Assembly (NCBI GenBank): GCA_050950825.1
Contig: JBMNIH010000005.1
Location: forward strand, 64,001-128,000
Length of the DNA stretch: 64,000 nucleotides
Direction of reading: 5' to 3'
From: Clostridia bacterium
GTDB lineage: Bacteria; Bacillota; Clostridia; JAAYHZ01
This document shows, piece by piece, positions 11,779 through 29,227 of this stretch (position 1 is its first letter; each line of letters starts with the position of its first letter). A model generated the notes under the pieces. The model did no database searches and was not told the DNA's origin. It saw only the letters and a program-made list of their open reading frames with translations. Position numbers and translations under genes: made by a program.

Positions 11779-11938
11779 CCGCCCTACCTCCAAAAGATCG
11801 TGTGCGTTGGTACCTTTATTGTACATTAAAAATTCTCATCTTGCAGTATGGACTTTCTATTCTTTCTATATATAATATTCTTAAATGAGGCAAATCAGGT
11901 TTTTTCAAGAAGAAAAAGTAAAATGCCGAGAGGTTCCT

Positions 11939-13513
11939 ATGCAAAATATTGATCGAATCCAAGAAACCGCTTATCAACTGATTTTAGAATTTTTAACCGG
12001 TGAAGAAAAACCGATTCCCCGTTTCGACCTTAACGACGAAACGGCGCTTTTGAACCTGTTATATAACCGCAAAGTTCTGTTTGCTTTGTCGCCTCTTTTG
12101 GAAAAAAAGCTTTCCGCACCTTCCGTAACCAAAATGAAGGTTCTAACGGCTCATCATAAGAACGTAATTCGGAAAAGGCTTTCCGTTGCAAAAGAGGTGA
12201 TGGATACCGCCATAGAAAACCGTATCCCTTGCGTCTTCATCAAAGGCATGGCTTTATCCCGGCTCATATACGAAGACATATACATAAGACCGGGTAACGA
12301 TTTGGATTTTTGGACGGGCCCCGAATATGCATTGCCCCTTGCAGAAATCTTATTACAAAAAGACTTCTATATCAGCGGCCGCCCGGATCCGAAGACCGGG
12401 AAGGCGGAAAAAATTAAAAAGCCCGTTATGATTCCGGGCTCCTACTATTACGAATACACCGTAGAAAAGGAAGTCGACGGTTTTTCCATAAAAGCGGAGA
12501 TTAAAAAGCTATCCAGCGCCTTGCTATTCTTAAAGAACAGTCCCTATCGGGAAAACATGCTCCAATACACGGAAGAAATCGATTTGGAAGGAAACCGGTT
12601 TGTAACAAGCGATTTGGAATATACCCTTCTTCATTTGTGCGCAAACACATATGTTAATACCGAAAGCGAATTCGGCGTCCTTCATTCTCATCATTGGATC
12701 GATTACATGGATTTGTACCTTTTCTTAAAAAAGTATCAAAATGCTCTGGATTGGAAAAAGGTAAAAGAGCACGGAGAAAACTTGGGCATAACCCATCGAA
12801 TCTACAAAACCTTTAACGACGTCAAAGAATTGTTCGGTTTTCCGATGGACGAATCGATTATCGGACAGTTTACCTTTAACCCCGAAAATGTTACGCATGA
12901 AAGGGTATTCCCGAGCGGTTCCTTAACCGATTGGAAAATGAGCATCAAGGAAAGGTTTTTCTACCCTAAGGAACGGATTATCGAATACTATAAAGGTATA
13001 AGAGCCGAAAAATTCCGACAAGAATACGTAGAAAAAAGCACGTATCGGGTAGAAACAATCGACGACAATCCTCCTTTCTTACGGATGGCGGATGAAGCGG
13101 GGATTGATTACGCCGATTTAAGAATATATAAAGACGATAAAGGACTCTATTTTCATTTGGATCTTGCCGAGGTTGTTAAGAAAAATCCTACGGATTATCA
13201 AGTGCTTTTGTCCTTGTTCAATAACGACATGGAATCCGACGTCTACCAAACCGTCATCCGAACCCATTACGACTCCAACGGCATCTACGCCGATTTGGAG
13301 GATCACAAGCACAAAACGACCGACGCCCTAACGGCGGTGCAAAAGGATGACAGTATTCTTTTACATATCCCCTTCGACAGCATAATCGGGTGGAAAAAAA
13401 GGCTTCTTGCCTTCTCCATCTATTTTTTCAAAAAGATCGAAAACGGTGCCTACGATTACACGGCAGGGGTTATAAAGTCCGATTTGGAAAAAGCAAAGTA
13501 CATCCGGTTCTGA
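11939..13513 (+). CDS. Nucleotidyltransferase family protein (NTP_transf_5-like) with C-terminal extension
   Basis: FIKGMALSRLIY...RPGNDLDF and LLHLCAN...WIDYMDL match the NTP_transf_5 pattern. Start at ATG 11939 after GAGG. Confidence 0.75.
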   Translation: MQNIDRIQETAYQLILEFLTGEEKPIPRFDLNDETALLNLLYNRKVLFALSPLLEKKLSAPSVTKMKVLTAHHKNVIRKRLSVAKEVMDTAIENRIPCVFIKGMALSRLIYEDIYIRPGNDLDFWTGPEYALPLAEILLQKDFYISGRPDPKTGKAEKIKKPVMIPGSYYYEYTVEKEVDGFSIKAEIKKLSSALLFLKNSPYRENMLQYTEEIDLEGNRFVTSDLEYTLLHLCANTYVNTESEFGVLHSHHWIDYMDLYLFLKKYQNALDWKKVKEHGENLGITHRIYKTFNDVKELFGFPMDESIIGQFTFNPENVTHERVFPSGSLTDWKMSIKERFFYPKERIIEYYKGIRAEKFRQEYVEKSTYRVETIDDNPPFLRMADEAGIDYADLRIYKDDKGLYFHLDLAEVVKKNPTDYQVLLSLFNNDMESDVYQTVIRTHYDSNGIYADLEDHKHKTTDALTAVQKDDSILLHIPFDSIIGWKKRLLAFSIYFFKKIENGAYDYTAGVIKSDLEKAKYIRF

Positions 13514-16189: not shown

Positions 16190-17482
16190 TTACTGCTCGA
16201 TTTGGATTTCAAACCAAAAGAGGCTTCCTTTCCCCTCTTCGGTTTCCACTCCGTAGGTACCGTCGTGCATCTCGATAATCTTTTTGACAATGGAAAGACC
16301 TAAGCCCGTACCCATAATGGGCCGCTTATGATTCTTATCCACCTTATAATACCGATCCCGGATATAGGGTAAATCGCTCTTTCGAATCCCTTCTCCTTTG
16401 TCGATGACTTCGATTCTTACGTTTTTATCGTTTGTTCTTTGCCGTACCAAAACCGTTTTGTCTTCTCCGCTGTGGGTTATGGCATTGAGAAGAAGGTTAT
16501 ATAATACTTGGGTGATTTTCACCTCGTCGGCAACTACGCCAACATCCTCGAAGGCTTCAAACTCCAGCCGATAACCCTCGTGCTTTACAAGCTCGTTCAT
16601 CCGGTTGACGGTTCGTTTTAAGCTCTCCGTCAAGTTGTAGCTCATCTTGTTCAGCTTCGATACCCCCGCTTCAAGTAAAGAAATGTCCGGCATATCGTTC
16701 ACCAAGGAGGTTAATCGTTTTGTTTCGTCCATAATGATTTGACTTTGGTCCGGCGTAACCTCGTCCGGGAAGTCGTGCATCATCTCCGCATAGCTGTATA
16801 TGAGAGCAAGAGGGGTACGCAAATCGTGGGAGACGTTTGCAATCAGCTCCCGCCGCAGCCGCTCCGTCTTCGAAAGCTCGGTAGCCGCCGTGTTTAACGT
16901 ATCCGACAATTCCTTGATTTCCAAATACCCTTTCCCGCGAAATTCCGTGTCGTAGTTTCCCTTTGCCAATGCTTTTGCGCTTTGGTTGATTTTCTCAATG
17001 GGCTTGGATATGTGCTTGGCGATGAGGATGGCAAGCATGGTTGCCAAAAGCACCATCATCCCCGTAATGATAACAAGCCGGATTTGCAGGGTGGACACGG
17101 TGGAATCGACCGGGGTTATCATGGCGTGAAAGGTAAGCGATATCTTTTTGCCGTCCTCCAAAACAAACTCCCGGACCGAGGTTATGGTCTCCGGTCCGTT
17201 TTTATGTCTTCCCGGCGCAGGGAGAGAAGGAGGATAAAATTCTTGAGTCGGCCTTACGGTAATGGCTTTGGACGCTTCCAGCTCAAGCAGTATATTCCCT
17301 AGCTCCGGATTGTTAATATTTTTCTCCACCGTCTGAATCGCTTTTTCCATCTCCATCTTACGAACGAATTTATACATGTCGCTTAAAAAAACCGTCTGAA
17401 AAATCCACAGGATGGCCAAAAGCAATACGCAAAACCCCAGGAGAAAAATAAATATTTTCCATTTTAATTTCAGCTTATCCAT
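16190..17482 (-). CDS. HAMP-domain sensor histidine kinase
   Basis: Two TM segments, HAMP, ANVSHDLRTPL (H box), NLLLNAI, DKGEGI and GTGLGL. Confidence 0.95.
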   Translation of the reverse strand: MDKLKLKWKIFIFLLGFCVLLLAILWIFQTVFLSDMYKFVRKMEMEKAIQTVEKNINNPELGNILLELEASKAITVRPTQEFYPPSLPAPGRHKNGPETITSVREFVLEDGKKISLTFHAMITPVDSTVSTLQIRLVIITGMMVLLATMLAILIAKHISKPIEKINQSAKALAKGNYDTEFRGKGYLEIKELSDTLNTAATELSKTERLRRELIANVSHDLRTPLALIYSYAEMMHDFPDEVTPDQSQIIMDETKRLTSLVNDMPDISLLEAGVSKLNKMSYNLTESLKRTVNRMNELVKHEGYRLEFEAFEDVGVVADEVKITQVLYNLLLNAITHSGEDKTVLVRQRTNDKNVRIEVIDKGEGIRKSDLPYIRDRYYKVDKNHKRPIMGTGLGLSIVKKIIEMHDGTYGVETEEGKGSLFWFEIQIEQ

Positions 17483-18161
17483 CGAATCGATACCCCAGCC
17501 CGCGAAGGGTTTTTATATACTGTGCATAGGGGCCTAAGGATTTTCTTAGCAATTTCATATGGGTATCCAACGTTCGGTCGTCGCCGTAGTAGTTAAAGCC
17601 CCACACCTCCGTCATAATCTTTTCCCTTGGCACCGCTATGTTTTTATTCCGTATTAAGAAAAACAACAGGTCGTATTCTTTCGGCGACAAATTCACTTCC
17701 TCGCCGTCAATAAACACCTTGTATGCCGTCAAATCCGCTTTAAAGCCGTCTTTTTCGAAAACCACGTGGCCTTCGTCATCGGATTTTGCAGGCTTGCTTT
17801 TTTCCATACGGCGTAATATGGCGCCGATTCTCAGCATAATCTCCTTGGAAGAAAAGGGCTTTACCACGTAGTCGTCTACGCCGAGTTCAAAACCCAATAC
17901 CTTGTCATACTCTTCGCCCCGGGCGGACAGCATGATGATGGGAGTGTCCGAAAATTTACGAATTTCCTTTACGGCGGAAAAGCCGTCCATTCCCGGCATC
18001 ATGATATCCATAATGATGATGTCAAAATCGTTGTTTCGGCAAAGCTCTATGGCTTCCAAGCCGTCATCGGCTTCGAAAACCTCGTTGCCCTCGAAAACGG
18101 CATACCTTTTGATCACCGCTCGAAGGCCCGCTTCATCGTCGCATATTAGAATTTTTGCCAT
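17475..18161 (-). CDS. OmpR/PhoB family response regulator
   Basis: ILICDDE, MDIMMPGMDG, DDYVVKPF, LSPKEYDLL and TLRGLGYRF. Confidence 0.96.
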   Translation of the reverse strand: MAKILICDDEAGLRAVIKRYAVFEGNEVFEADDGLEAIELCRNNDFDIIIMDIMMPGMDGFSAVKEIRKFSDTPIIMLSARGEEYDKVLGFELGVDDYVVKPFSSKEIMLRIGAILRRMEKSKPAKSDDEGHVVFEKDGFKADLTAYKVFIDGEEVNLSPKEYDLLFFLIRNKNIAVPREKIMTEVWGFNYYGDDRTLDTHMKLLRKSLGPYAQYIKTLRGLGYRFDG

Positions 18162-18249
18162 TTATCACATCATCCCTTTCTTCGGTATGCTTGATTTTAC
18201 CATAGAATAATCGGGAGCATACCGTATCGTCATCCGCCTTGATTTTAAC

Positions 18250-20307
18250 CTAATAGCTTCTTTTATACCGTGCCACAAATACCGTGGCGGCAACCGGTAA
18301 AAGAACAAGCACACCCGTGAGTATCGGCGAATTGCTTTGATTATCCCGTGATCTCGGTATATTTATATTCGTACGGTTTTGGGTCCGCCCTTCCCGGTTC
18401 TCTTGGCCTCCCGGAAAGAACCCTCCCTGTCCCGGGCCGCCTTGGGCCGGCATTTGTCGGTCGGGAACGGCTCTTTGTTGTCCGTCTTGGAAAAACCATC
18501 CAAACCCGCCTTCTTGTTGGAATCCTCCCGGAAACTCAAAATTTCTACCGTCTCTGCCTCCTAGCATGCTTCCTAATACGGACAGGTTCAAATTTCCCGC
18601 AGGCACCAACTTATTCGGATTTTGGGCCTGTTCCTGCGTTGTAGAAGGAACCGATCCGTCAAGCTGCCCTTGCACGCTTTGGGCGCGGAGATTCCCTAGG
18701 GTTATAAACGCGGAGACGGCCGTTTTGTATTCCTCGTAAGAGCAAAAGGCGGTAGGGTCGTTTTTCACGTATTCGGAAATCAAAGCGTCCAGCTCTTTGA
18801 TTTTCTGCTCGAACTTCCCTTCCGAGAAATAGTTGTCAACCAACCGCTGCAAATAGCCGTGGTAGCGATCCTTGTATTCTTCATCGGACAACAGCTTATC
18901 GATCAAAGGACGGCTTGCCATGCTCACACCGCTTACGGGCGTGTCAACGGGAAAGTTGATCACGGAAGAAGCGCTGCTGTTAAAGAATCCGCCCCAAGCA
19001 AGGTTGTAGTCCCAAGGCAGGACGGTAACTTTTCCGTCTCGCTCGTAAATATAGTAGTTTTGCGCCATTTGGGAGCTGTAGCTGTCCAAGTTCACAACAA
19101 AGGTATGTGCCGCCAAATAGCGTAATATCTTGTCGATGTCAAAGTACTTTTCAAGGTCTTTTCCTTCCGATAAAGCTTTGATCGCTTCGATAACGCGTAA
19201 ATAATCTTTTTCCGTTCCTTTTCCTACCGTGTTGTTAAAAATCGCCGGGTAGCTTTGGGGGTTGTCATCGATGTATTCCAAGCTGCCTCCCGAGCCTCCT
19301 CTCATGCCCATACCCCCGAAGTTCCAATTAAACCCGCCGTTATTATTCCATGCCGGCGGATTGAAATCATCCATTGCCGGCGGATTATTATCACTCGTCC
19401 CCGGAGGATTGTTTTGAGGAGGATTCATAAAAGGCCAAGCGTTTTGCTGCGGAAAACGCGGAGTATTCGAGTCGGAGGGTTCTCTTGTCTCGGGAGGCGA
19501 ATCGGAAGGCGAAAACCCTCTCGGAGGTGTCGACGGCGCCCCTCCTTCATTTCGAGGCCCCTGTTGAAAACCGGGATTCTGCTGAAACGCACCTCCGAAA
19601 GGCATTTGGGGCCATCCTTCTTGCCTGTTCGGCATGTTTTCTTGTTCTCCCCGTCCGAAATCGCCGATGTTTCCTCCGAATCCCGACATTTTTACGTTGT
19701 ACAGCATTCCTTTCGTATCGCCGAAAACCCGCTGTTCATAGCTGTCGTTATACAGTTCCACGGCAAGGTACAGTCCCCAAGGTTCACCGTTTACCTTAAC
19801 CTCCGCATAACCGAAATAGGGAGCGTCTACGCCGGCTTCACGCGTCAAATCGTAGGAGATATACTCCTTCATGTATGTATAATCCCCTAGCATGTTGTTG
19901 ATAACAAAGCTTTCCAGGCCGAAACAGGTCTGTTTTTTGACGTATTCGTTAAATTGAAGGCGAAAGCTGTATCGATCGCTGTTGGAGCTTGCCACTTGGG
20001 TTAAGCTGGAGTTCCCTTTGGGGCGAATGCCGATGTTCATAAATTTCGTGCCGTTTACAATCACATCCGCCATAATAAACTGCTCGTTGATGGCATTGTC
20101 CAGCATTTCCTGCCAGTCGTCTTCATCCGCGAGGATGTCAATGGAAATGATGTCGGTACCGAAAATCTTCCGCGCATACTCCGGTTCCGTTTTCAGATTC
20201 CCCTTTTGGGCTTCCGTATTCGCTACCGCCACAAGGGTAACGCTTACGGCCAAGGCGAAAATTACGGCAATCGCCACGACAATATGTATCTTATTATTCT
20301 TAATCAT
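18250..20307 (-). CDS. cotH: CotH kinase family protein, secreted and C-terminally membrane-anchored, with low-complexity Gly/Pro/Gln inserts
   Basis: IGIRPKGNSS, SFRLQF, VNGEPWGLYLAVE, NLDSY, NYYIY and LPWDYNLAWG; N-terminal signal peptide and C-terminal TM segment. Confidence 0.85.
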   Translation of the reverse strand: MIKNNKIHIVVAIAVIFALAVSVTLVAVANTEAQKGNLKTEPEYARKIFGTDIISIDILADEDDWQEMLDNAINEQFIMADVIVNGTKFMNIGIRPKGNSSLTQVASSNSDRYSFRLQFNEYVKKQTCFGLESFVINNMLGDYTYMKEYISYDLTREAGVDAPYFGYAEVKVNGEPWGLYLAVELYNDSYEQRVFGDTKGMLYNVKMSGFGGNIGDFGRGEQENMPNRQEGWPQMPFGGAFQQNPGFQQGPRNEGGAPSTPPRGFSPSDSPPETREPSDSNTPRFPQQNAWPFMNPPQNNPPGTSDNNPPAMDDFNPPAWNNNGGFNWNFGGMGMRGGSGGSLEYIDDNPQSYPAIFNNTVGKGTEKDYLRVIEAIKALSEGKDLEKYFDIDKILRYLAAHTFVVNLDSYSSQMAQNYYIYERDGKVTVLPWDYNLAWGGFFNSSASSVINFPVDTPVSGVSMASRPLIDKLLSDEEYKDRYHGYLQRLVDNYFSEGKFEQKIKELDALISEYVKNDPTAFCSYEEYKTAVSAFITLGNLRAQSVQGQLDGSVPSTTQEQAQNPNKLVPAGNLNLSVLGSMLGGRDGRNFEFPGGFQQEGGFGWFFQDGQQRAVPDRQMPAQGGPGQGGFFPGGQENREGRTQNRTNINIPRSRDNQSNSPILTGVLVLLPVAATVFVARYKRSY

Positions 20308-20326
20308 GCTTTCACCCCATTAAACT

Positions 20327-20998
20327 TTAGTCGGCGTATTCGCCGTTGAAGCTTACAAGGCAAGCATTGTTCACTCCGTTTATCTTTAACAATTCATTTA
20401 AAAGCTTTGCCGACATGTCCAAAAGGCGTACTTCGACGGTAAGCTCGATGCCGTTTTTGGAAACGGTCTTCGATTTGATTATATTCTTCTTTGTTTTTTC
20501 CTTGATTAAATTCATGCAATCCTGCTCCGCTTTATCATCCGCAAGGTTCAGCACCACGATGTACGGCGTATCGGTGCTTTTCCTGTTTACGAAAATAAAG
20601 AGCATAAGACCGATGAATAGCGATCCGATGATGGCAAGCGGAATCAACCCCGCACCCAATACGATGCCCGCCGAAATCGCCCAGAACAAAAAGGCAATAT
20701 CCAAGGGCTCCTTAATGGCCGTTCGAAAACGAACAATGGATAACGCGCCTACCATACCGAGGGACAGCACCAAATTCGATGTGACCGCAAGGATGATGAG
20801 GGTAGTGATCATGGTCATCGCCATAATGGAAACACCGAAGGCCGCGGAGTACATGACCCCCGAATAGGTTTTTTTGTAAACGTAAAAGATAAACAGCCCG
20901 ATGGCGAAAGCAAGTAGCATGGCAAGGGCTACATCCAAAACGGAAAATTCAACGGCCTTTTCCAAAAAGCTCGATTTAAAAACATCTCGAAAAGTCAT
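20327..20998 (-). CDS. DUF4956 family membrane protein (MgtC-like)
   Basis: SNLVLSLGMVGALSIVRFRTAIKEPLD signature. Confidence 0.9.
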   Translation of the reverse strand: MTFRDVFKSSFLEKAVEFSVLDVALAMLLAFAIGLFIFYVYKKTYSGVMYSAAFGVSIMAMTMITTLIILAVTSNLVLSLGMVGALSIVRFRTAIKEPLDIAFLFWAISAGIVLGAGLIPLAIIGSLFIGLMLFIFVNRKSTDTPYIVVLNLADDKAEQDCMNLIKEKTKKNIIKSKTVSKNGIELTVEVRLLDMSAKLLNELLKINGVNNACLVSFNGEYAD

Positions 20999-21022
20999 AG
21001 CATTTCCTCCTCACAATCTCTT

Positions 21023-21700
21023 CTAAATATATCTTGCCGCTGCATATTTGGAAAACGACGTACTTTTTCTGCCGGAAAGCGAAACCGCACCTCGGATGAT
21101 TTCAGGCAAGAAGCTGTCGTACTTAACTTCGAGATTATACACGTCTTGAATGGGTATGGGAGCCGGTTCTTTTTTTAAGAAACCATAAACATTGGAGCCT
21201 GTTCGTATGTCGTAATCCAGCGTCACCCTCACGTTCCCCGGAGAGTATACAAACGCTTCGCGCCAATACTCCACAATGTTTTTCGGTCGAAGCTGCAGGT
21301 AAAACATTTTCGCATAAAGCTCCAAGCAGAAAGGATTCTCCTTTTCCTTTAAAACGGCATAATCCCCCGAAAGGAGCCTTTTGCAATCTTCCTCCGATAA
21401 AAGGGCACCTTCTTTATAGCATAAGCCGCCTTGCTTGCTCTTTTTTTCAAGGCGTATAAAAGAGGTATCGTTGTTGTACAACCTTAAGCGAAATTTCTCA
21501 CGCCCGTCTACTCCGTTGATTTTTTCCATTAACACTTTGTCGTTGTAATTATCGAAGTAGAGGCTTTTGACACGATAGCCGTATCCTTCCTTGGAGTTCT
21601 CATCCCGTTTTGCGATTAGGGAAAGCCGGGACCGAAGCTCCAACAAATCGGCGTAATTGATATAGTGCTTCAGCTCACGTCTGCCGCATGGTCGGCTCAT
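21023..21700 (-). CDS. VTC-domain (polyphosphate polymerase-like, CYTH superfamily) protein
   Basis: RRELKH, SLYFD, EKINGVDGREKFRLRLY, LEKKSK, RVTLD, LEVKYD and FSKY. Start at ATG 21700 after AGGAGAGG. Confidence 0.9.
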   Translation of the reverse strand: MSRPCGRRELKHYINYADLLELRSRLSLIAKRDENSKEGYGYRVKSLYFDNYNDKVLMEKINGVDGREKFRLRLYNNDTSFIRLEKKSKQGGLCYKEGALLSEEDCKRLLSGDYAVLKEKENPFCLELYAKMFYLQLRPKNIVEYWREAFVYSPGNVRVTLDYDIRTGSNVYGFLKKEPAPIPIQDVYNLEVKYDSFLPEIIRGAVSLSGRKSTSFSKYAAARYI

Positions 21701-21731
21701 CCTCTCCTCTCCTTTCCTCTCGGATAAGTCC

Positions 21732-21785
21732 ATTATAGGCGATGAAACTGAAATGCATTTGTCCGTTATCTGAACTTTATCTGAA
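21732..21785 (-). promoter_or_regulatory. Promoter with an OmpR-type direct-repeat operator upstream of the VTC operon
   Basis: TTATCTGAA at 21766 and 21777 (11-bp period) and an in-phase CTGAA at 21748; TATAAT on the minus strand at 21732-21737. Confidence 0.6.
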
Positions 21786-21834
21786 AATTTTATAAAGAAT
21801 CCATATAAAAAAGTCAAGAAGAAAATATCCGGTA

Positions 21835-23205
21835 TTATCCGTACAAACGCTTGATCAGCTTAAGTCCCTTTTTCCCGGTAGAGTAACGGAAAGGGATGTC
21901 AAAAAGCGTGGTTTGCTTCAAAATAATTTTTTTATGAGAAAAAGCATCGAAGCTTGCTTTCCCGTGGTAATATCCCATCCCGCTTTTCCCTACTCCTCCA
22001 AAGGGCAAATAGGGAGACGTCACGTGAAATATGGTATCGTTGATACAGCCTCCCCCAAAGGAGACGTTACTTAAAACTTCTTTTTCGACGGCGGAGCTTT
22101 CCGTAAACAAGTACAGGGCCAAAGGATCGGGATGCCGAAGAATTCCGTTGAAAACCTCCGTTAAGCTGTCGTACTCCATAACGGGAAGTACGGGTCCGAA
22201 TATTTCCTCCTGCATAACGTGATGCTCCCAAGTGATGCCGGTTAAAACCGTAGGTTCGATTACCAAGCGCTCTTCATCAAAGGAGCCTCCTAAGATAATT
22301 TCTCCTTCGTTCAAATAACCGGTCAGACGTTGAAAATGCTTCCGGTTCACAATCCTTGTATAATGAGGGTTTTTTACGGGAGAAGCACCGTAAAGATCAA
22401 AAACGGCTTTTTTCAGCTCTTCCAAAAAAAGATCACGGACATTTCGGTGTACGTAAACGTAATCCGGAGCTATGCATGTTTGACCTGCATTGATAAACTT
22501 CCCCCAAACGATTCTTTTTGCGGCAAGCCGGATTTTGGCATCCTCATGGACGATGCAAGGCGATTTTCCTCCAAGCTCCAGGGTAACGGGAGTCAAATGC
22601 CTCGCCGCCTTTTCCATCACGATTTTCCCCACTCTTTCGCTGCCGGTGAAAAATATTTTATCAAACGGCTCCTCCAAAAGATCTTGTCCGGTATCGATAT
22701 CGCCCGGCACTACGGCGATATATTCTTCCGGATAGAGTTTTTTGATGATGTCCTCCAAAACCTCGGAGGTTTTCAAGGACATCTCCGACGGCTTGATGAC
22801 GGCACAGTTACCCGCACCGATAGCCCCGATCAAAGGAGCGATGGCAAGCTGAAAAGGATAATTCCAAGGGGATAAAATAAGCGCCGTGCCGTAAGGGTCG
22901 GAGTACACGGTATTTACAGAACCGATCTGAAACCAAGATGACTTTACTCTTTTCGGTTTTGCCCAAGACCGAAGATTTTTTAAGAAAAAGCGAATCTCCT
23001 CCAAGACATAGCCGATTTCGGTGGTATAGGCTTCGAAATCCGATTTATTTAAGTCTTTTTTCAAAGCATCCGTTATTTTGCTTTCGTTTTCCTTGATGGA
23101 TTCTTTTAAGTCTTGTAAGGCTTTTATCCGATACTCTATGTTCTTGGTCTTACCGGTTAAAAAGAAATCTTTTTGCTTTCGGACAAGATCGTGAGCATCC
23201 TTCAT
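21835..23205 (-). CDS. NAD(P)-dependent aldehyde dehydrogenase (ALDH3/YwdH-like)
   Basis: PWNYP, KPSE, FTGS, LELGGKSP, GQTC, EEIFGP and PFGGVGKSG. Confidence 0.95.
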   Translation of the reverse strand: MKDAHDLVRKQKDFFLTGKTKNIEYRIKALQDLKESIKENESKITDALKKDLNKSDFEAYTTEIGYVLEEIRFFLKNLRSWAKPKRVKSSWFQIGSVNTVYSDPYGTALILSPWNYPFQLAIAPLIGAIGAGNCAVIKPSEMSLKTSEVLEDIIKKLYPEEYIAVVPGDIDTGQDLLEEPFDKIFFTGSERVGKIVMEKAARHLTPVTLELGGKSPCIVHEDAKIRLAAKRIVWGKFINAGQTCIAPDYVYVHRNVRDLFLEELKKAVFDLYGASPVKNPHYTRIVNRKHFQRLTGYLNEGEIILGGSFDEERLVIEPTVLTGITWEHHVMQEEIFGPVLPVMEYDSLTEVFNGILRHPDPLALYLFTESSAVEKEVLSNVSFGGGCINDTIFHVTSPYLPFGGVGKSGMGYYHGKASFDAFSHKKIILKQTTLFDIPFRYSTGKKGLKLIKRLYG

Positions 23206-23223
23206 CTGCATTCCTCCTGACAT

Positions 23224-23248
23224 AAAAAGGAGTCGCTCGTGACTCCTT
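23224..23248 (-). terminator. Rho-independent terminator ending the RiPP operon
   Basis: Minus strand reads AAGGAGTC-ACGAGC-GACTCCTTTTT. Confidence 0.65.
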
Positions 23249-23316
23249 GATATTTTCCGTATTTTATCCGCTCCATAGCCGACGTAAAGTTTTTCGGCGG
23301 CAACAAGCTTTCCCCT

Positions 23317-23790
23317 TTATTTTATCCTATGCTTCGAAAGCATGCAAATCCATTTGTAATATCGGCCTTTAAAAACTTGCTCCGTGTTTTTCACAACAAG
23401 AAACCTTTTATGCATCTTTAAAGAAAGAAAGACAATCAAAATGCTTTTTAAGCCGTAGGAGACCTTCTGCTCCGTTCCGTCGTCCCTGATTATTGTAACC
23501 ACCCTTCCGAAGCAATCCTTCGGATCAACGCTTTCGACGGCTACGGCATGGTCGCCTTTTATATACCACATATCCTTTTTCATTCGAACGATTCGGTGGG
23601 TAAGAAGCCTTCCTTTTTGATCAAAGGCGGTCACGATATCCCCTATTCGATAGCTTTCCGCTTTTTCAAGAACCACTTGATCCCCGGAGGATATGATAGG
23701 TTCCATACTGACTCCCTTCACCGTGATGCGATTGTTGTTTTGTCTTAATTGTATTTCGGTCAGAGCTTTATACAGATTGGTTTGATCCAT
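23317..23790 (-). CDS. S24/S26 family (signal peptidase-like) serine peptidase
   Basis: GVSMEP (catalytic Ser), GDIV, LTHRIV and IKGD. Confidence 0.85.
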   Translation of the reverse strand: MDQTNLYKALTEIQLRQNNNRITVKGVSMEPIISSGDQVVLEKAESYRIGDIVTAFDQKGRLLTHRIVRMKKDMWYIKGDHAVAVESVDPKDCFGRVVTIIRDDGTEQKVSYGLKSILIVFLSLKMHKRFLVVKNTEQVFKGRYYKWICMLSKHRIK

Positions 23791-24601
23791 GGACGGTTCC
23801 TCTTAAAACCTCTTCTACATAATCCATACGGCTGTAGTTTAATTCATGCGTTCCGGCCTTTGCAAGCTCAATCAACAATTGGACGAAAGAAGGATCCGGT
23901 TTTTGGACGGTATATTGATTCTTCAAAAGCATTAAAAACCCTTCCTGTGACGAGAGCGGGCTTAAAGCTTGGATATCCTTTGTTCTTGCGATCTTGAATA
24001 TTCCTGCCAATGAATACTCCGAGTTTTTATATGACGCGTATACGACCTTTCTCTTGATATCTCCGTACTCGAAAAACTCCCCTTCGACGTCGATTCCGCA
24101 ATTTGTTAAAACCTCCGCTCCGCCTTCTCTTAATTGGATCGGACGAGGAAAAGGAATGATTTTTTTATCTTTTTTACGTATAAGCGCCAAGTCGTCCGAC
24201 AAATAGTCGAATCCCCGCTTGACCAAATAGGCGGTGAGGGTGGATTTTCCGGATCCCGTAGTTCCGGTTAGGATAAAGGCTTTGCCGGATAAACCGACTA
24301 CGGCTCCGTGTATGGCAAGAATCTCCTCGTCTACGGTCGTGGATTCGAACAGAATGTTTTCTATGGCTTGCAAGGCATAGCCACGAGGGATTTTTATCGT
24401 GCTTCCTTGGCAAGTAAAAAGACCGATTTTTGCTTCGTAGGTAATCTCCACGGTCCGGTCTTCGGAGACAGTTTCAAGGCGCATCGGGTTTTGTATAAAG
24501 GGATTGTAGAAAGCATAGAGAATTCGGGTTAACGATTCATCGTCGGTATTCACAACAACAACGGGTTTTTGATAGGGGCGTTTGATTCGTATTTTATGCA
24601 T
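23768..24601 (-). CDS. HPr kinase-related P-loop kinase
   Basis: IHGAVV...AFILTGTTGSGKSTL...YLSDD...IIPFP pattern of HprK-related (PadeK/ScmC-like) kinases. Confidence 0.8.
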   Translation of the reverse strand: MHKIRIKRPYQKPVVVVNTDDESLTRILYAFYNPFIQNPMRLETVSEDRTVEITYEAKIGLFTCQGSTIKIPRGYALQAIENILFESTTVDEEILAIHGAVVGLSGKAFILTGTTGSGKSTLTAYLVKRGFDYLSDDLALIRKKDKKIIPFPRPIQLREGGAEVLTNCGIDVEGEFFEYGDIKRKVVYASYKNSEYSLAGIFKIARTKDIQALSPLSSQEGFLMLLKNQYTVQKPDPSFVQLLIELAKAGTHELNYSRMDYVEEVLRGTVHGSNQSV

Positions 24602-25625
24602 GTAGATCTTCCCTGCGCATAGTCAGTACGTTTTTTGCCACTTGTCTGGATATTTGCAGTTTTCGGAAATTGCAGTCCCCGTCATCGGCAAGATAATCCT
24701 TCGTAAGATGATATGCGGATGCGGCGCAGCCTCTTCCGCATAAGTTTTTGCTTATACATTTGTGGCATCCGTAGTCGCACTTTTGTCTTTCCGACAATAG
24801 CGATTGCAGCTCCTTCAGTTTTTCTTCCATGGAGTCGAAATCAAGCCGGTACAAGGAACCGACGGAAAATTCGGGTTCATACAAGTTTTGGCAAGGTTGA
24901 ATGTCTCCGTTGGATTTAACGCAGATACTCAGCCGGTCTAAATTAATTATGGAGCAATTAAAAGTGGCGTAAGGTACGGTAGTCTTAATCCCGTACTTTT
25001 CTTGAAGCTTCTCGATTTTTTCAATGACCTTCAGTTTTTCTTCGGGAGTCAGTTCGATTTCCCTCCAATACCGGTCCGCATGTCCCATTTTCTCCGCAAA
25101 TGCAAAGGAAGGCTTGCAATTGTTTTCAATTGCAAGCACAAAATACTCCTCAACTAAACTGAAATTAAGTCGAGAAACGGTCATTTTGATGATCGGAGAG
25201 ACCTTAGGCTGAAAAGAAGACAAATTTCTCATTGTCTTCATGTAACTGCCTTTTTCCCGAACCCTTGCGTTAGTTTCGTCATCGATACCGTCAATACTGA
25301 ACTGTACGGAGAAACGATCATCCGTTTCCAGTAGACGATAAAAACGGTCGCATCGTACGGTGCCGTTTGTCACCACGAAGAAAGACAATTCTTTGTGCTT
25401 TTCCATCACATCCAGAACCTGTCCCCACTGTCGGTGCAGCAACGGTTCGCCTCCGGAAATGTCAAAGATGGATAATCCGTATCTTTGATGAAAAGCAACA
25501 AGAAACTTTTCAAGCTCATCGGCCGGAATTTCCTGCAGTTCCCTTTTTGAGCCGGATGCGTTGTAGCAATGTCGGCAATTCAGATTGCACCTATTCGTAA
25601 TTTCCACATAGCAAGACCGTATCAT
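24594..25625 (-). CDS. Radical SAM / SPASM domain peptide maturase
   Basis: CNLNCRHC (CxxxCxxC), SGGEP, TNG and SIDG; SPASM cysteines C..NGDIQPC...CHKC....CGRGC...DGDC. Confidence 0.93.
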   Translation of the reverse strand: MIRSCYVEITNRCNLNCRHCYNASGSKRELQEIPADELEKFLVAFHQRYGLSIFDISGGEPLLHRQWGQVLDVMEKHKELSFFVVTNGTVRCDRFYRLLETDDRFSVQFSIDGIDDETNARVREKGSYMKTMRNLSSFQPKVSPIIKMTVSRLNFSLVEEYFVLAIENNCKPSFAFAEKMGHADRYWREIELTPEEKLKVIEKIEKLQEKYGIKTTVPYATFNCSIINLDRLSICVKSNGDIQPCQNLYEPEFSVGSLYRLDFDSMEEKLKELQSLLSERQKCDYGCHKCISKNLCGRGCAASAYHLTKDYLADDGDCNFRKLQISRQVAKNVLTMRREDLHA

Positions 25626-25906
25626 CCGACTGTTTCTTTCTCCGCTTTTTTCAGTAAACCGTTCTCTACAAACCGGTTTACCAATTCCTTAATGTCATTT
25701 TGAATAACGCTGCGTTCACCTTCGTACTTTTCAAGCAGCATGTCCGTAGCTTCTTCAAGATCCCTTTCGGTCTCAAAGCAGTTCAAGACATCCAAAGCTA
25801 TACCGTCTAACACCAGGGTATTCCCCGTGCTGCCGTCAAAGTATACACAGCCTTCTCCGTCGTCTAAGGGCATTTCCTCATAGACGATGCTCTTTATGAA
25901 CCTCAT
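25622..25906 (-). CDS. PqqD family RiPP recognition element (RRE)
   Basis: 94 aa; VYFDGSTGNTLVLDGIALDVLNCF...LLEKYE...IQNDIKELVNRFVENGLL. Confidence 0.88.
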   Translation of the reverse strand: MRFIKSIVYEEMPLDDGEGCVYFDGSTGNTLVLDGIALDVLNCFETERDLEEATDMLLEKYEGERSVIQNDIKELVNRFVENGLLKKAEKETVG

Positions 25907-26052
25907 AGAGCCATCCTACCTATGCGTATGAGATCACAAGCAACTCCATAGGTTGAGCATGCTCCGGAAACCACAACCTTATTGAGCTCATCCAACGTGA
26001 TGACCTCCATTGTCGGTTTCTGCCACTGCTTCTTGATCGTTTCTTGTTTCAT
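25903..26052 (-). CDS. Putative RiPP precursor peptide, 49 aa: MKQETIKKQWQKPTMEVITLDELNKVVVSGACSTYGVACDLIRIGRMAL
   Basis: Not in the ORF track; translated by hand. AGGAGG RBS upstream; its TGA overlaps the RRE start (ATGA); KKQWQKPTMEV leader; two Cys in the C-terminal part. Confidence 0.88.
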   Translation of the reverse strand: MKQETIKKQWQKPTMEVITLDELNKVVVSGACSTYGVACDLIRIGRMAL

Positions 26053-26074
26053 TGTTCAATCCTCCTATCGATTA

Positions 26075-27136
26075 TTAGTGTATAATCTTTTTCAGTTGTC
26101 TTAAGGCAATATTGATTGAATCCGGTCGGATCTTGTAATAGGAGCGCTTGCCTTCGTTTCTTCTTTCCACCAATCCCGATTGGTACAAAATATCCAAATG
26201 GTGGGACAGGGAGGATAAGGGTAATCCCAATCGCTCCGCGATTTCACTGGCAAACAATTCCCCGTCTTTAATGGTTTTGATGATGCTTATTCGTGTTTCA
26301 TCGGTAAAGGCTTTGAAGAACGTAATTTCATCCTCGTGAATATCCTGTACGACCTGCAAGCCTCTATCGTAATCAAATCCTAAATATACATTCAAAGTCC
26401 GTCTATACATTCGATATTGTATGGTATAGGGTATGAAAAATCCTACGGCAAGTCGAACCGTTGTAAATCGGCCTGATTTTACAAGGCTTGCATAGTTATC
26501 GGACATCTTCATAAGCCGGCTGTCGCCGTAGGCTTCAAATCTTTTTCCGACGGTTTCATAATATTCATCGATCAATTTTCGGTGGTTATCGTACTCGATT
26601 TCCAACTCTCTTGCAAAGTCCGTCAATGATTTGACTATTTTTCGCTTCGTTCCTTCAGGGGATTCGATCAACGATAGCATGTTCCATTTCAGGTCCGCAT
26701 CCAAATTGATGCCGTCCAAAAACACCATTAACAGTTTCTTGTTTTCTAATAGGAATTGATAAAAGGAGTCGGGAAAATGATTCTTCGAATCATAAAAATC
26801 CAATAATTTTATTTGCAATTCATCGGTGTCGATATCGTTAAAAGCATTGATTAACTCCTCAATGGATTCACCGTTCACCAACGATTCCGCCATTAAATTA
26901 GGAAAAAAGGTCATTCCGTTATCACATGTGTGAAAAAAAAGGCGAATCAAAGGAAGGTCATTTTTTATGTATTCTCGTAAACGAGAATACGCGGTTTTAA
27001 CATTTCGCGGCACAGAGAGGTCATAATCGGTATAGATTTCATCAAGATTTTTGCACCGCGTTAACAGATTAAGAAGAGCAGTAAAATCATAAATTTTACC
27101 CTTCTCCGGCTCGTACAAGTATGTTATGTCATTCAT
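26075..27136 (-). CDS. ArsR/SmtB family regulator (C-terminal wHTH, large N-terminal domain)
   Basis: FFKAFTDETRISII...FASEIAERLGLPLSSLSHHLDILYQSGLV...GKRSYY. Confidence 0.85.
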   Translation of the reverse strand: MNDITYLYEPEKGKIYDFTALLNLLTRCKNLDEIYTDYDLSVPRNVKTAYSRLREYIKNDLPLIRLFFHTCDNGMTFFPNLMAESLVNGESIEELINAFNDIDTDELQIKLLDFYDSKNHFPDSFYQFLLENKKLLMVFLDGINLDADLKWNMLSLIESPEGTKRKIVKSLTDFARELEIEYDNHRKLIDEYYETVGKRFEAYGDSRLMKMSDNYASLVKSGRFTTVRLAVGFFIPYTIQYRMYRRTLNVYLGFDYDRGLQVVQDIHEDEITFFKAFTDETRISIIKTIKDGELFASEIAERLGLPLSSLSHHLDILYQSGLVERRNEGKRSYYKIRPDSINIALRQLKKIIH

Positions 27137-27153
27137 TATATTACCTCAAAAAT

Positions 27154-27168
27154 ATTATCAATGATAAT
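27154..27168. promoter_or_regulatory. Perfect 7-1-7 palindrome just upstream of the ArsR RBS (candidate operator)
   Basis: ATTATCA-A-TGATAAT. Confidence 0.45.
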
Positions 27169-27327
27169 GGAAAACACGAACCAAAACAGTTCGATCGGTT
27201 ATCTGTCGTAATTTTTTCGTATAATTTTATATTTTTCTTTAGTAACGACCGATAAATTCATTAATATCGCCTAAATTGGTTGATATCCCCTAAAAATCTT
27301 CCTTTATTTTACCTCACATCGAAATTA

Positions 27328-27355
27328 ATTATATCATTCCTTTGTTTAAATTCAA
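27328..27355 (-). promoter_or_regulatory. SigmaA promoter for the ArsR-RiPP operon
   Basis: Minus strand TTGAAT-N16-TATAAT with an extended TGn, in an AT-rich intergenic region. Confidence 0.6.
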
Positions 27356-27521
27356 TCACTTTATTACTAAAATCTTGATTTTTAGCACAAATTTATTTTT
27401 AAAAATGTTAAATTTCTGCCTTCAAGCCTTATATATCCCCGTTACCACTACAGTTCCGAAGGGTTTTATGGTAAGATGGAAAAAATAATTTCAACATCAA
27501 AGAACAGCGGAGATACCATAC

Positions 27522-28211
27522 ATGATCATGTACAAATACGAAACCCATGCTCACACATCGGAAATCAGCCTGTGCGGAAAAATCAGCGCCGCGGATTTGG
27601 TCAGGTTCTATAAACAACAAGGATACAAAGGCATATTCATAACCGACCATTTCATAACCGGCAACACAACGGTACCGAAGGATTTGCCTTGGAAAACACG
27701 CATCGATATGTACTGCAAGGGCTTTGAAAACGCATATGCGGAGGGAAAGCGTATCGGGATTGACGTCTTTTTCGGTTGGGAACACTCATTTCAAGGAACG
27801 GACTTTTTGACCTACGGTTTGGACAAAGAATGGCTTTACGAACATCCGGAGCTGGAGGCAGCGGACCTGAATACATACAGCGACATTGTAAGGGCTAGCG
27901 GCGGTTTTGTGGTTCATGCCCATCCCTTTCGCGAAGCCGGCTATATCAGTATGATCCGTCTGCTTCCCCGTAAGGTGGATGCGGTGGAAACGGACAATTC
28001 ATGCCGAACGGATTTTGAAAACTTTTTGGCCAATCAGTATGCCGAAAATTACGGCCTTTTGAAATTCGCCGGGTCCGATAACCACAGAGGGCCTCTTCCT
28101 CGCCTTGCGGGAATACAGGTGGCCGAGCCTTTAAAAACGGAAACGGATCCGGTTGATGCCATAAAATCCGGGAAATTTGAAATGTTCTCGCTTATCAACG
28201 ACGGAAAATGA
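27522..28211 (+). CDS. PHP domain metal-dependent phosphoesterase
   Basis: ETHAHT, ITDH, VHAHPFR and AGSDNH. Confidence 0.88.
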   Translation: MIMYKYETHAHTSEISLCGKISAADLVRFYKQQGYKGIFITDHFITGNTTVPKDLPWKTRIDMYCKGFENAYAEGKRIGIDVFFGWEHSFQGTDFLTYGLDKEWLYEHPELEAADLNTYSDIVRASGGFVVHAHPFREAGYISMIRLLPRKVDAVETDNSCRTDFENFLANQYAENYGLLKFAGSDNHRGPLPRLAGIQVAEPLKTETDPVDAIKSGKFEMFSLINDGK

Positions 28212-28344
28212 CATTCAATATTCCATAGAAACTATGGTGTATAGAAGAAAAAGTTGAATCATCATTCGGGGAATGCTAGAATGAAACAAAGAAGCTTTGA
28301 AGCTTTTGGCTAGGCCAATAGGATAAATAAAAGGAGTTGATTGT

Positions 28345-29169
28345 ATGCCATTACCGGTAGCGCTGCAAATGTATTCGGTAAGAGACGAATTAAGTAAAGA
28401 TTACAAAGCCACGTTAGAAAAAGTCAAGGCCATGGGCTACGACTATGTGGAATTAGCCGGGTTCGGAGGAAAAAGCGTCGATGAAATAAAGAAACTGTAC
28501 CAAGATGCCGGACTATGCATCATATCCGCCCATGTAGCTATTTCGGAACTGTTAGAGGACACGAAGAAAACCTTGTCGGAATATGCCTCTTTAGGCTGCT
28601 CCTATATCGCCATTCCTTGGCTGGAAGAAGAAAGACGTCCGGGGCATAAGGGATTTGAACCGACCATTCAAGACATTTTAAACATCGGAAGAATCGCAAA
28701 GGAAATGGGAATGAGCCTGCTTTATCACAACCACGATTTTGAGTTTGTCACAATCGACGGAAAATACGCTTTGGACATTCTGTACGAAACGATACCGGCG
28801 GATATCTTACAGTCCGAAATCGATACCTGTTGGGTTCATTTTGCCGGCGTCAATCCCGTGGAATATTTGAAAAAATTCAAAGGACGTGCACCCGTTGTAC
28901 ACTTGAAAGATTTCACCGCCGACGACACATCCTCTTCCGACACTCCCTACGACCTCATCATGAGCAATGCGCCGAAAAAGACAAGAGAGGAATCCCACTT
29001 TAAATTCCAACCTTTAGGCTACGGAAAACAAGACATTCCTTCTTTATTGGAAGCTTGCGAATACGTAGGAGCCAAATACGTTATCGTGGAACAAGACGTT
29101 TCAACCGATCGAACCGGTTTGGAGGATGCGGAAATCAGCCGTAACACATTGAAAAAATACGGATGGTAA
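28345..29169 (+). CDS. Sugar phosphate isomerase/epimerase (AP endonuclease 2 / IolE-like TIM barrel)
   Basis: LQMYSVR, GYDYVELAG, YHNHDFEF, EIDTCW, HLKD and IVEQD. Confidence 0.9.
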   Translation: MPLPVALQMYSVRDELSKDYKATLEKVKAMGYDYVELAGFGGKSVDEIKKLYQDAGLCIISAHVAISELLEDTKKTLSEYASLGCSYIAIPWLEEERRPGHKGFEPTIQDILNIGRIAKEMGMSLLYHNHDFEFVTIDGKYALDILYETIPADILQSEIDTCWVHFAGVNPVEYLKKFKGRAPVVHLKDFTADDTSSSDTPYDLIMSNAPKKTREESHFKFQPLGYGKQDIPSLLEACEYVGAKYVIVEQDVSTDRTGLEDAEISRNTLKKYGW

Positions 29170-29227
29170 AATAGAAGGATATATTAAAAGGGGTAAGATG
29201 TCCGATTCATTTTTTAAATCGGACACC

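Follow-up and report, generated by a model that had tools for sequence, protein, structure and literature searches.

The operon described here lies on the minus strand at positions 23317-27136 of the window, a 64,000-nucleotide stretch of a Clostridia bacterium contig (JBMNIH010000005.1) that belongs to a genome of 3.55 Mb in 11 contigs with 97.1% completeness. Six intact open reading frames (ORFs) appear in the ORF listing. They encode a two-domain ArsR-like regulator, a short precursor peptide, a recognition element (RRE) of the kind used for peptides that are made by the ribosome and then modified (RiPPs), a radical S-adenosylmethionine (rSAM) enzyme with a SPASM domain, an HprK-like kinase, and a signal-peptidase-like leader peptidase (Table 1). 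A gap of 22 nt containing AGGAGG separates the regulator gene from the precursor gene. From there on the genes overlap, with 4-nt ATGA overlaps at the precursor/RRE and RRE/rSAM junctions, 8 nt between the rSAM and kinase genes, and 23 nt between the kinase and peptidase genes. The terminator-like hairpin begins 68 nt past the peptidase stop. The original prediction had described five overlapping genes with these same junctions, and coordinates and sequence agree with it; the terminator, which it placed at 23224-23248, is found as a hairpin at 23248-23227 on the minus strand. Its domain calls for the RRE, the rSAM/SPASM enzyme, the HprK-like kinase, and the S24/S26 peptidase are likewise borne out by profile searches.

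Table 1. Genes and regulatory features of the operon (ribosome-binding site, RBS; positions in the window)
Feature	Position	Strand	Size	Basis
Two-domain ArsR-like regulator	26075-27136	-	353 aa	
Precursor peptide MKQETIKKQWQKPTMEVITLDELNKVVVSGACSTYGVACDLIRIGRMAL	25903-26052	-	49 aa	ORF + RBS
Discrete PqqD-type RRE	25622-25906	-	94 aa	PqqD domain
Radical SAM/SPASM enzyme	24594-25625	-	343 aa	Radical_SAM + cysteine motifs
HprK-like P-loop kinase	23768-24601	-	277 aa	Hpr_kinase_C
SipW/archaeal-type signal-peptidase-I-like (S26) leader peptidase	23317-23790	-	157 aa	Peptidase_S24/TIGR02228
Terminator-like hairpin, operon end	23227-23248	-		8 pairs, 4 G-C, T-rich tail
Promoter-like site TTGAAT-16 nt-TATAAT with TG	27328-27355	-		10/12 matches; weak

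A scan of one genome per species yielded 54 loci with a close relative of the rSAM enzyme (L001 to L054). Together with L086 and L087 these form the 56 loci examined; L085 was left out because its contig is that of L001. Contig ends truncate many of the loci, and not all are independent, the rows of L021, L022, and L086 being identical. The hosts of the 54 loci are mostly uncultured Clostridia from animal guts and digesters, among them Oscillospiraceae, Ruminococcaceae, and Acutalibacteraceae, with single bins labeled Margulisbacteria, Opitutales, and Paludibacteraceae. In a set of 61 genomes, the host and its relatives, only 3 carry the rSAM set at an E value of ≤1e-40, and the distribution is therefore patchy. 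Iterated searches within ∼6 kb of each of the 56 loci recover the RRE at 54, the kinase at 49, the peptidase at 46, a PF14907-type nucleotidyltransferase at 41, the precursor at 30, the regulator N-terminal domain at 29, and an ATP-binding cassette (ABC) exporter at 18. The exporters are ABC_tran proteins by Pfam, as at L015. Chance does not account for the arrangement, since 54 other loci repeat this gene set. At one locus of the clade with a peptidase-RRE fusion, the only locus checked for it, a 391-residue PP-binding (phosphopantetheine-attachment) protein is encoded between the rSAM and nucleotidyltransferase genes (L012:7021-8196); it may provide a further tailoring step.

The precursors form a family of their own. 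An iterated jackhmmer search of small ORFs gave 36 matches, 35 of which were aligned, with spacings measured on the ungapped sequences; this set was used in place of a regular-expression scan, which returned mostly false positives. Many homologous loci keep a precursor of the same family, a point that the original prediction had put forward as a check. In the numbering of the window's peptide, the only residues invariant across the 35 sequences are W10, P13, S33, and C39. The leader motif, given originally as YxxP, is in fact WxxP (W10-Q-K-P13), is present in all 35, and is predicted from the sequences to bind the RRE. Residues 7 to 19 of the window precursor match the leader part of a paeninodin-family model weakly (E value, 0.0016). 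The spacing from the Trp to the Ser is 23 in 35/35 precursors, and the residues ahead of the Ser are constrained as well: position S-6 is I/V in 35/35, S-4 is A/V/L/I/S in 34/35, S-3 is A/S/G in 32/35, and S-2 is A/G/S in 34/35. S-1 is variable (C in 17, R in 7, W in 6, and others in 5). Core lengths, counted from S-1, run from 9 to 28 residues and are mostly 9 to 18, with one Cys in 15 cores and two in 20. This pattern fits a leader that would measure, as a ruler, a constant distance from the WxxP motif to a site of small residues resembling the (-3, -1) positions of signal peptides and to the invariant Ser, followed by a short variable core. Because the Ser stands exactly 23 residues past the Trp in every homologue, the RRE appears to set a fixed register. 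In the host genome, the search for a second precursor copy gave only a chance-level match (E value, 0.094).

Two genomes that hold the loci L025 and L012 contain second loci (L055:3527-7002 and L056:30-7005) in which an ArsR-like gene is accompanied by a precursor of the same family. A much more distant rSAM/SPASM gene, with 27 to 29% identity to that of the window, lies ∼1 kb beyond the precursor there, so that the precursor family pairs with two rSAM clades.

The RRE of the window contains a PqqD domain (40.1 bits; cut-off, 23.4). The profile of the family RREs lies nearest to the B1 proteins of lasso peptide clusters, TbiB1 (8e-10) and TfuB1 (1e-6), followed by PqqD (2e-6), LppB (9X8Z; 9x8z_B) (7.7e-6), and PbaB1 (9X90) (1.9e-5). 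The NCBI model of Bacillota lasso PqqD proteins, lasso_PqqD_Bac, is matched by 18/19 family RREs, and PqqD_rel_X is matched weakly by 17/19. Phosphorylated lasso peptides of the paeninodin type (PadeA/B1/B2/C/K) were reportedly described by Zhu et al. in 2016. The WxxP leader, the lasso-like RRE, and the HprK-like kinase could be the remains of such a cluster that has lost its cyclase and protease and has an unrelated rSAM gene as a neighbor. Conservation contradicts this explanation, which is scarcely credible: the junctions are all translationally coupled and the reading frames all intact, the set containing the rSAM gene occurs in 54 loci, and the catalytic residues are invariant. The lasso cyclase domain PF00733 has 0 matches in the host genome, whereas a control matched 11/14 known genomes, and the core domain of the B2 transglutaminase-like protease, PF13471, also has 0 matches in that genome. 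The absence of both enzymes, claimed from the operon originally, thus extends to the genome, and neither a lasso cyclase nor a B2 protease can act in trans.

An experimental precedent for three of the five parts, the RRE, the kinase, and the peptidase, is given by the linear polyphosphorylated peptides (LPPs) of Bacillota (Popov et al., Nat Commun, 20 May 2026, PMC13381572). According to the main text of that paper, LPP clusters, found in Paenibacillus alginolyticus and other Bacillota, encode a SipW-like signal peptidase I (LppS), a discrete RRE (LppB), an HprK-like kinase (LppK), a nucleoside triphosphate (NTP) transferase (LppN), and an MsbA-like exporter (LppD), and the precursors carry the motif YxxPxVLxHQxIxFETxxS (PMC13381572). 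LppK is described there as adding one to four phosphates to core Ser3 in Bacillus subtilis, with phosphorylation of Ser3 abolished upon deletion of lppK (PMC13381572). Deletion of lppS is likewise stated to abolish leader cleavage after T-1, the unphosphorylated precursor being poorly cleaved (PMC13381572). LppS is reported to require LppB and to depend on S29, H68, and D93 as essential or catalytic residues (PMC13381572).

The kinase and peptidase of the window show the corresponding conservation. The kinase matches Hpr_kinase_C with 31.2 bits, just below the cut-off of 33.3, and TIGR04352 (HprK_rel_A) with 73 bits against a cut-off of 200; the residues H98, G118, K119, T121, D137, R158, G160, and G161 are kept in all of the 45 to 46 homologues aligned, from a set of 47 kinases. 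The peptidase scores 32.3 bits with Peptidase_S24 and 25 bits with the SipW model, its best model being TIGR02228 (42.4 bits; cut-off, 51.85). All 46 aligned homologues share G26, S28, M29, P31, H65, R66, K78, G79, D80, and E86. Among these, S28, H65, and D80 parallel the Ser/His/Asp triad S29/H68/D93 of LppS, a comparison made by the described residues only. A word-index protein search with the peptidase matched only the query itself and lacks the sensitivity to detect LppS or named relatives. Natural fusions, identified with Pfam, join the peptidase to the RRE in the largest clade (L005, 244 aa) and to the PF14907 domain in another (L021, 709 aa; L040, 501 aa). That the peptidase and the RRE are fused in nature supports, independently, a joint function of both proteins. 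The rSAM enzyme, the kinase, and the RRE reach the curated cut-off of no NCBIfam family.

The rSAM enzyme scores 69.1 bits with Radical_SAM. It carries the CxxxCxxC motif at C13/C17/C20 and the SPASM cysteines C224, C245, C287, C290, C296, C300, and C318, all of which are invariant in an alignment of 25 family members. About 57 close relatives, with 190 to 781 bits, exist in a collection of 5.8 billion proteins, in which the next match has 128 bits. A quick maximum-likelihood analysis unites the 54 full-length enzymes of the family in one clade with support of 97 in the Shimodaira-Hasegawa-like approximate likelihood ratio test (SH-aLRT) against three more distant rSAM/SPASM outgroup proteins, and the window's enzyme groups with L001 and L087 (SH-aLRT, 96). 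Among solved structures, the profile of the family is nearest to the thioether synthase SkfB (1.5e-28; 102.9 bits), and its alignment with CteB (6e-19) covers the full length. The enzyme must act on something that all cores share, which leaves C39 (and S33). A Cys-derived thioether is the first choice for its chemistry as judged from these sequences, although it is not established.

The same pathway could instead include an rSAM reaction of another kind, such as the oxidation of Cys (or Ser) to formylglycine as in anSME-like enzymes, epimerization, a C-C or C-O cross-link, or C-terminal decarboxylation as by MftC, an alternative that is unlikely but deserves serious consideration. The highest NCBIfam score is indeed that of MftC (96 bits; cut-off, 265), ahead of ScmE (91/400), NirJ2 (85/500), PapB (83/340), ScmF (78/400), StsB (76/625), SkfB (58/300), and AlbA (52/850), and models of AhbD and anSME score as well. 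The family profile matches anSME (1.3e-19) and PqqE (2.8e-19) about as it matches CteB, at ∼73 bits, which SkfB nevertheless exceeds, and the MftC, anSME, and PqqE models stay far below their cut-offs. A C-terminal Arg, usually preceded by an aromatic residue, ends 19/35 precursors and might point to chemistry at the C terminus in the largest clade; the aromatic-Arg pair is, however, absent from the clade of the window. One Ser and one Cys remain the sole core residues common to the 35 precursors, which speaks against this alternative.

MftC as the top match, together with the same parts list of RRE, SPASM enzyme, and peptidase and an operon without an exporter, could also indicate that the peptide is converted to a small-molecule cofactor in the manner of pyrroloquinoline quinone (PQQ) or mycofactocin. 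Such a function is very improbable. Precursors of cofactors hold their reacting residues in fixed register, whereas the cores of this family vary in length and show Ser-to-Cys spacings from 2 to 8. The patchy occurrence, in 3/61 genomes, and an operon with no redox partner genes also stand against it, as do the MftC, PqqE, and PqqD models, which remain below cut-off.

The regulator was called an ArsR gene ahead of the precursor in the original prediction. Its position holds, but the protein is not a single-domain ArsR, only the last ∼90 residues being ArsR-like. A mostly helical N-terminal domain (N-domain; residues ∼1 to 255) precedes an ArsR/SmtB winged helix-turn-helix (HTH) domain (∼265 to 353), in which HTH_5/HTH_20 are matched at residues 278 to 326 and NF033788 at ∼272 to 342 (74.6 bits; cut-off, 55). 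An AlphaFold2 model of the whole protein, made with a 34-row alignment, has a predicted local distance difference test (pLDDT) score of 90.4. Its matches to solved structures are confined to residues ∼262 to 353 and are all ArsR/SmtB proteins (3f6o, Z 14.1; SrnR, E value of 6e-5). Modeled alone, the N-domain (26075-26845) reaches a pLDDT of 93.6 and a predicted template modeling (pTM) score of 0.90 and shows ∼14 helices with a three-stranded sheet. Foldseek (best E value, 0.055; template modeling [TM] score, 0.14) and VIA-align (best Z, 4.8 over 79 residues) yield no assignable fold match, a result that does not prove a new fold. An assignment to DUF5937 was considered and rejected: the best atlas value, 0.87, is below the threshold of 0.9, the clusters concerned contain 18 to 41% DUF5937, and there is no Pfam match at an E value of ≤0.01. 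A phmmer search of 1.84 billion representatives found 43 relatives of the N-domain, 21 of them at an E value of ≤1e-10 and nearly all of 350 to 370 aa, whereas the insensitive word-index search with the regulator matched 5 proteins. The N-domain is about as rare as the rSAM clade and therefore seems system specific; as modeled, it seems an additional novelty, with no structural match.

Gene order ties the regulator to the precursor. For 32/35 precursor genes, an ArsR-like or N-domain gene precedes on the same strand, and the precursor gene follows it at a distance of -50 to +28 nt. The clade with the peptidase-PF14907 fusion has three regulator paralogues per locus, one of which lacks the HTH domain (L021:7283-8137, no Pfam match). 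Such HTH-less N-domain paralogues are found directly upstream of a precursor, beside full-length paralogues, at L021:7283-8137, L007:7370-8203, L038:7492-8307, L018:7357-8214, and L023:7349-8206. This arrangement, the rarity of the N-domain, and an operon devoid of exporter and immunity genes are what would be expected if the peptide were an autoinducer-like signal, sensed by the N-domain of the regulator, which in turn switches the operon, and not an antibiotic. We consider this role rather unlikely. The pairing of regulator and precursor fits plain autoregulation as well, and ABC exporters typical of secreted RiPPs occur in 18/56 loci, while the variability of the core at the strain level suits either role. 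Predicted complexes of the N-domain with the precursor, run without controls, gave ipSAE values of 0.02 and 0.01 and speak neither for nor against binding.

Taken together, the operon probably encodes an uncharacterized RiPP family in which a recognition, kinase, and peptidase module of the LPP/paeninodin type is combined with an rSAM enzyme in place of the class-defining enzyme. The class-defining place is taken by the lasso cyclase in paeninodins and by nothing in LPPs; here it would be occupied by the rSAM enzyme. The ArsR-like protein would control the operon. The PqqD-type RRE would bind W10-x-x-P13 of the 49-residue precursor and so fix the register, and the HprK-like kinase would phosphorylate S33, analogous to the action of LppK on core Ser3. 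The rSAM/SPASM enzyme would act on C39, most probably by forming a sulfur-to-carbon link to another core residue, a thioether of the sacti- or ranthipeptide type. With the substrate presented by the RRE, the SipW-type peptidase would then release the leader by a cut one or two positions ahead of S33. The likeliest cut is A31/C32, with S-2 as P1 and S-4 as P3, because the residues there are small or aliphatic, as at the (-1, -3) positions of a signal-peptidase site; strict analogy to LPPs would place it at G30/A31. The cleavage site is thus predicted from the precursor alignment and from analogy only. The product would be a cross-linked phosphopeptide of 18 or 19 residues. By analogy, the LPP mechanism accommodates the constant spacing of 23 residues, the small side chains at S-2 and S-4, and the fusions of peptidase and RRE. 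The original prediction of an rSAM-modified, possibly phosphorylated, and peptidase-trimmed peptide thereby stands as the best-supported reading, with the LPP system as described in the main text of PMC13381572 as precedent for the kinase, the peptidase, and the RRE, while we infer the chemistry of the rSAM step.

Several observations weigh against this reading. The MftC enzyme, top-ranking among NCBIfam maturase models none of which reaches its cut-off, is a non-thioether enzyme, and anSME and PqqE equal CteB in matching the family profile. The distance between the Ser and the Cys varies among the 35 aligned precursors, in which no conserved acceptor residue for a thioether is visible. By profile, the RRE lies nearer to TbiB1 and TfuB1, both lasso proteins, than to LppB. 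LppS, according to the main text of PMC13381572, cuts after the Thr of the FET motif and not at an AxA-like site. Flank annotation finds no exporter, immunity gene, or nucleotidyltransferase in the operon of the window, which in this respect differs from LPP clusters. The kinase and the peptidase were also not found at some loci, for example on the whole 12-kb contig of L049, which has the regulator, precursor, RRE, rSAM, and ABC genes. Phosphorylation is consequently not universal in the family; the radical SAM step seems to be the family core, and the LPP-type steps seem accessory.

A stronger version of the proposal is a distinct RiPP class, in which a ruler of leader and RRE places the Ser for phosphorylation and cleavage, a new SPASM clade modifies the Cys, and the phospho-thioether product is the ligand of a family-specific ArsR-type receptor, the sensor domain of which, ∼255 residues long, lacks a structural relative. 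We regard this version as improbable; if it were true, the operon would form a peptide-signaling circuit rather than make an antibiotic. Irrespective of this, the family is compact, with no more than five enzymes, short precursors with two invariant core residues, and contigs derived from digester RNA, and offers a tractable system for the chemistry of the SPASM clade, for the question of whether phosphorylation gates the radical step or cleavage, and for the ligand of the ArsR-like proteins. The family belongs mostly to uncultured Clostridia of the gut and rumen, for which few RiPP products are known.

The 4.1-kb stretch is found in runs labeled as biogas-fermenter, anaerobic-digester, bioreactor, and sludge metagenomes. 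At least half of its words occur in 20 rows from 17 coded studies, and six of these rows are RNA libraries. In a comparison of 21000-29200, contigs from four metatranscriptome runs cover the operon; three of the four share year and habitat and may belong to one campaign. One contig of 2,635 nt, from the run X8, spans 23683-26317, from the 5' part of the peptidase gene to the 3' end of the regulator gene. Contig depth cannot rank the genes, RNA libraries may contain DNA, and no evidence is drawn from stretches of low or no cover, such as parts of 21000-23190 and 27300-27575. Transcription of the operon in digesters is only weakly suggested by these contigs. The X8 and X18 RNA-library contigs carry a strain variant whose differences cluster in codons of the C-terminal half of the core. 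Provisionally, and among the differences listed, 18 of the 36 differences of the 2,635-nt contig fall within 25885-25953, and the codons of S33 and C39 are not among them.

The operon is taken as a unit of six genes because the genes on both flanks are unrelated to it. One flank holds an aldehyde dehydrogenase gene followed by a VTC/DUF4956/CotH trio, and the other holds genes for a PHP-domain protein, a xylose-isomerase-like protein, and an NMT1-type ABC importer. The promoter-like site, ∼190 nt upstream of the ArsR-like gene within a spacer of 30% G+C, scores best in the region, which has 12 such sites against 10.4 in shuffles; with no excess, this site is only a suggestion. The trio, lying in a row beside the operon, comprises a VTC-domain gene (21023-21817), a DUF4956 gene (20327-20998), and a CotH kinase-family gene (18250-20307), after which come paired genes for a response regulator and a histidine kinase (16190-18161). 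This module (16190-21817, minus strand) is separate from the operon. A PF14907 (NTP_transf_5) protein of 542 aa at 11885-13513 on the plus strand is not counted as a part of the system, lying 10 kb away on the opposite strand with unrelated genes between. It is the sole PF14907 protein of the host genome, the domain being cluster-linked in 41/56 related loci, and it shares 24% identity (E value, 3e-4) with the cluster-linked enzyme of L043 and gives a best E value of 0.014 with the L021 fusion.

Among known systems, SynChlorMet (ScmC/D/E/F) and HPr-rel-A, both bioinformatic families of NCBIfam/TIGRFAMs, share HprK-like and PqqD-like proteins with the operon, and SynChlorMet has rSAM/SPASM enzymes besides. 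The similarity to these families noted originally is only distant, every model of those systems being far below cut-off: ScmE and ScmF as given above, ScmC with 18/125, and HprK_rel_A with 73/200. SynChlorMet has two rSAM enzymes compared to one here, where an S26 peptidase and a WxxP precursor are added. Mycofactocin biosynthesis (MftA/B/C/E) likewise combines an RRE, an rSAM/SPASM enzyme, and a peptidase, with MftC as the best-scoring NCBIfam model; the differences are the low MftC score (96/265), the variable, Cys-containing cores without a fixed C-terminal dipeptide, and the kinase of the present operon. The maturases of sacti- and ranthipeptides (SkfB, CteB, PapB, StsB, and AlbA) resemble it in the seven-Cys SPASM rSAM enzyme, the RRE, and the short Cys-containing core. 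Their curated models are far below cut-off here, their RRE is an N-terminal domain rather than a separate protein, and the kinase, the S26 peptidase, and the lasso-type leader distinguish the present operon. The Rgg-linked rSAM clusters of bioRxiv 10.1101/467670, as far as that preprint was available, belong to a family other than that of the window. A term search of the text available from PMC12710340 and PMC7470986 gave no mention of kinases or signal peptidases. The claim that no characterized product exists for this precursor holds in the searchable literature. No paper on this combination of HprK-like kinase, rSAM enzyme, RRE, and signal peptidase was found in the full-text literature, which does not cover subscription journals and supplements.

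Paeninodin-type lasso clusters have in common with the operon the WxxP leader, the discrete PqqD-type RRE, and the HprK-like kinase, along with the weak match to the precursor model. They differ by their Asn-synthetase-like cyclase and B2 protease, in place of which an S26 serine peptidase and an rSAM enzyme are found here.

The closest likeness is that to the LPP system, as far as the main text of PMC13381572 describes it. Both have a [Y/W]xxP leader, a conserved Ser close behind the leader and constantly spaced from the motif, no lasso cyclase, and the set of RRE, HprK-like kinase, and SipW-like peptidase, and many relatives of the operon also have PF14907 and ABC exporter genes (41/56 and 18/56). 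In contrast to the LPP system, whose product is linear, the window's operon contains a translationally coupled rSAM/SPASM gene, and an rSAM gene is present in all 56 loci. The words "radical," "rSAM," "thioether," "Clostridi," and "ArsR" are absent from the main text of PMC13381572 in a term search. The first residue of the motif is always W in this family, while LPP leaders have YxxP and paeninodin leaders nearly always WxxP (PMC13381572); the distance from motif to Ser is 23 compared to 18, and the intervening consensus differs. The cores, mostly 9 to 18 residues with an invariant Cys, contrast with the 45 residues of LppA, and the host is anaerobic and of the Clostridia type rather than Bacilli, with a dedicated ArsR-like regulator. 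The designation as a new RiPP class is thus too strong, since the module of RRE, kinase, peptidase, and [W/Y]xxP leader was published in May 2026 (PMC13381572) and relatives of the operon carry PF14907 and ABC exporter genes. This module is already known; the rSAM clade, the precursor, and the regulator family are unstudied. In LPPs and paeninodins, one toolkit for recognition, phosphorylation, and leader cleavage serves two peptide classes. Here it is joined to a radical SAM enzyme, so that it looks like a portable module recruiting different class-defining chemistries.

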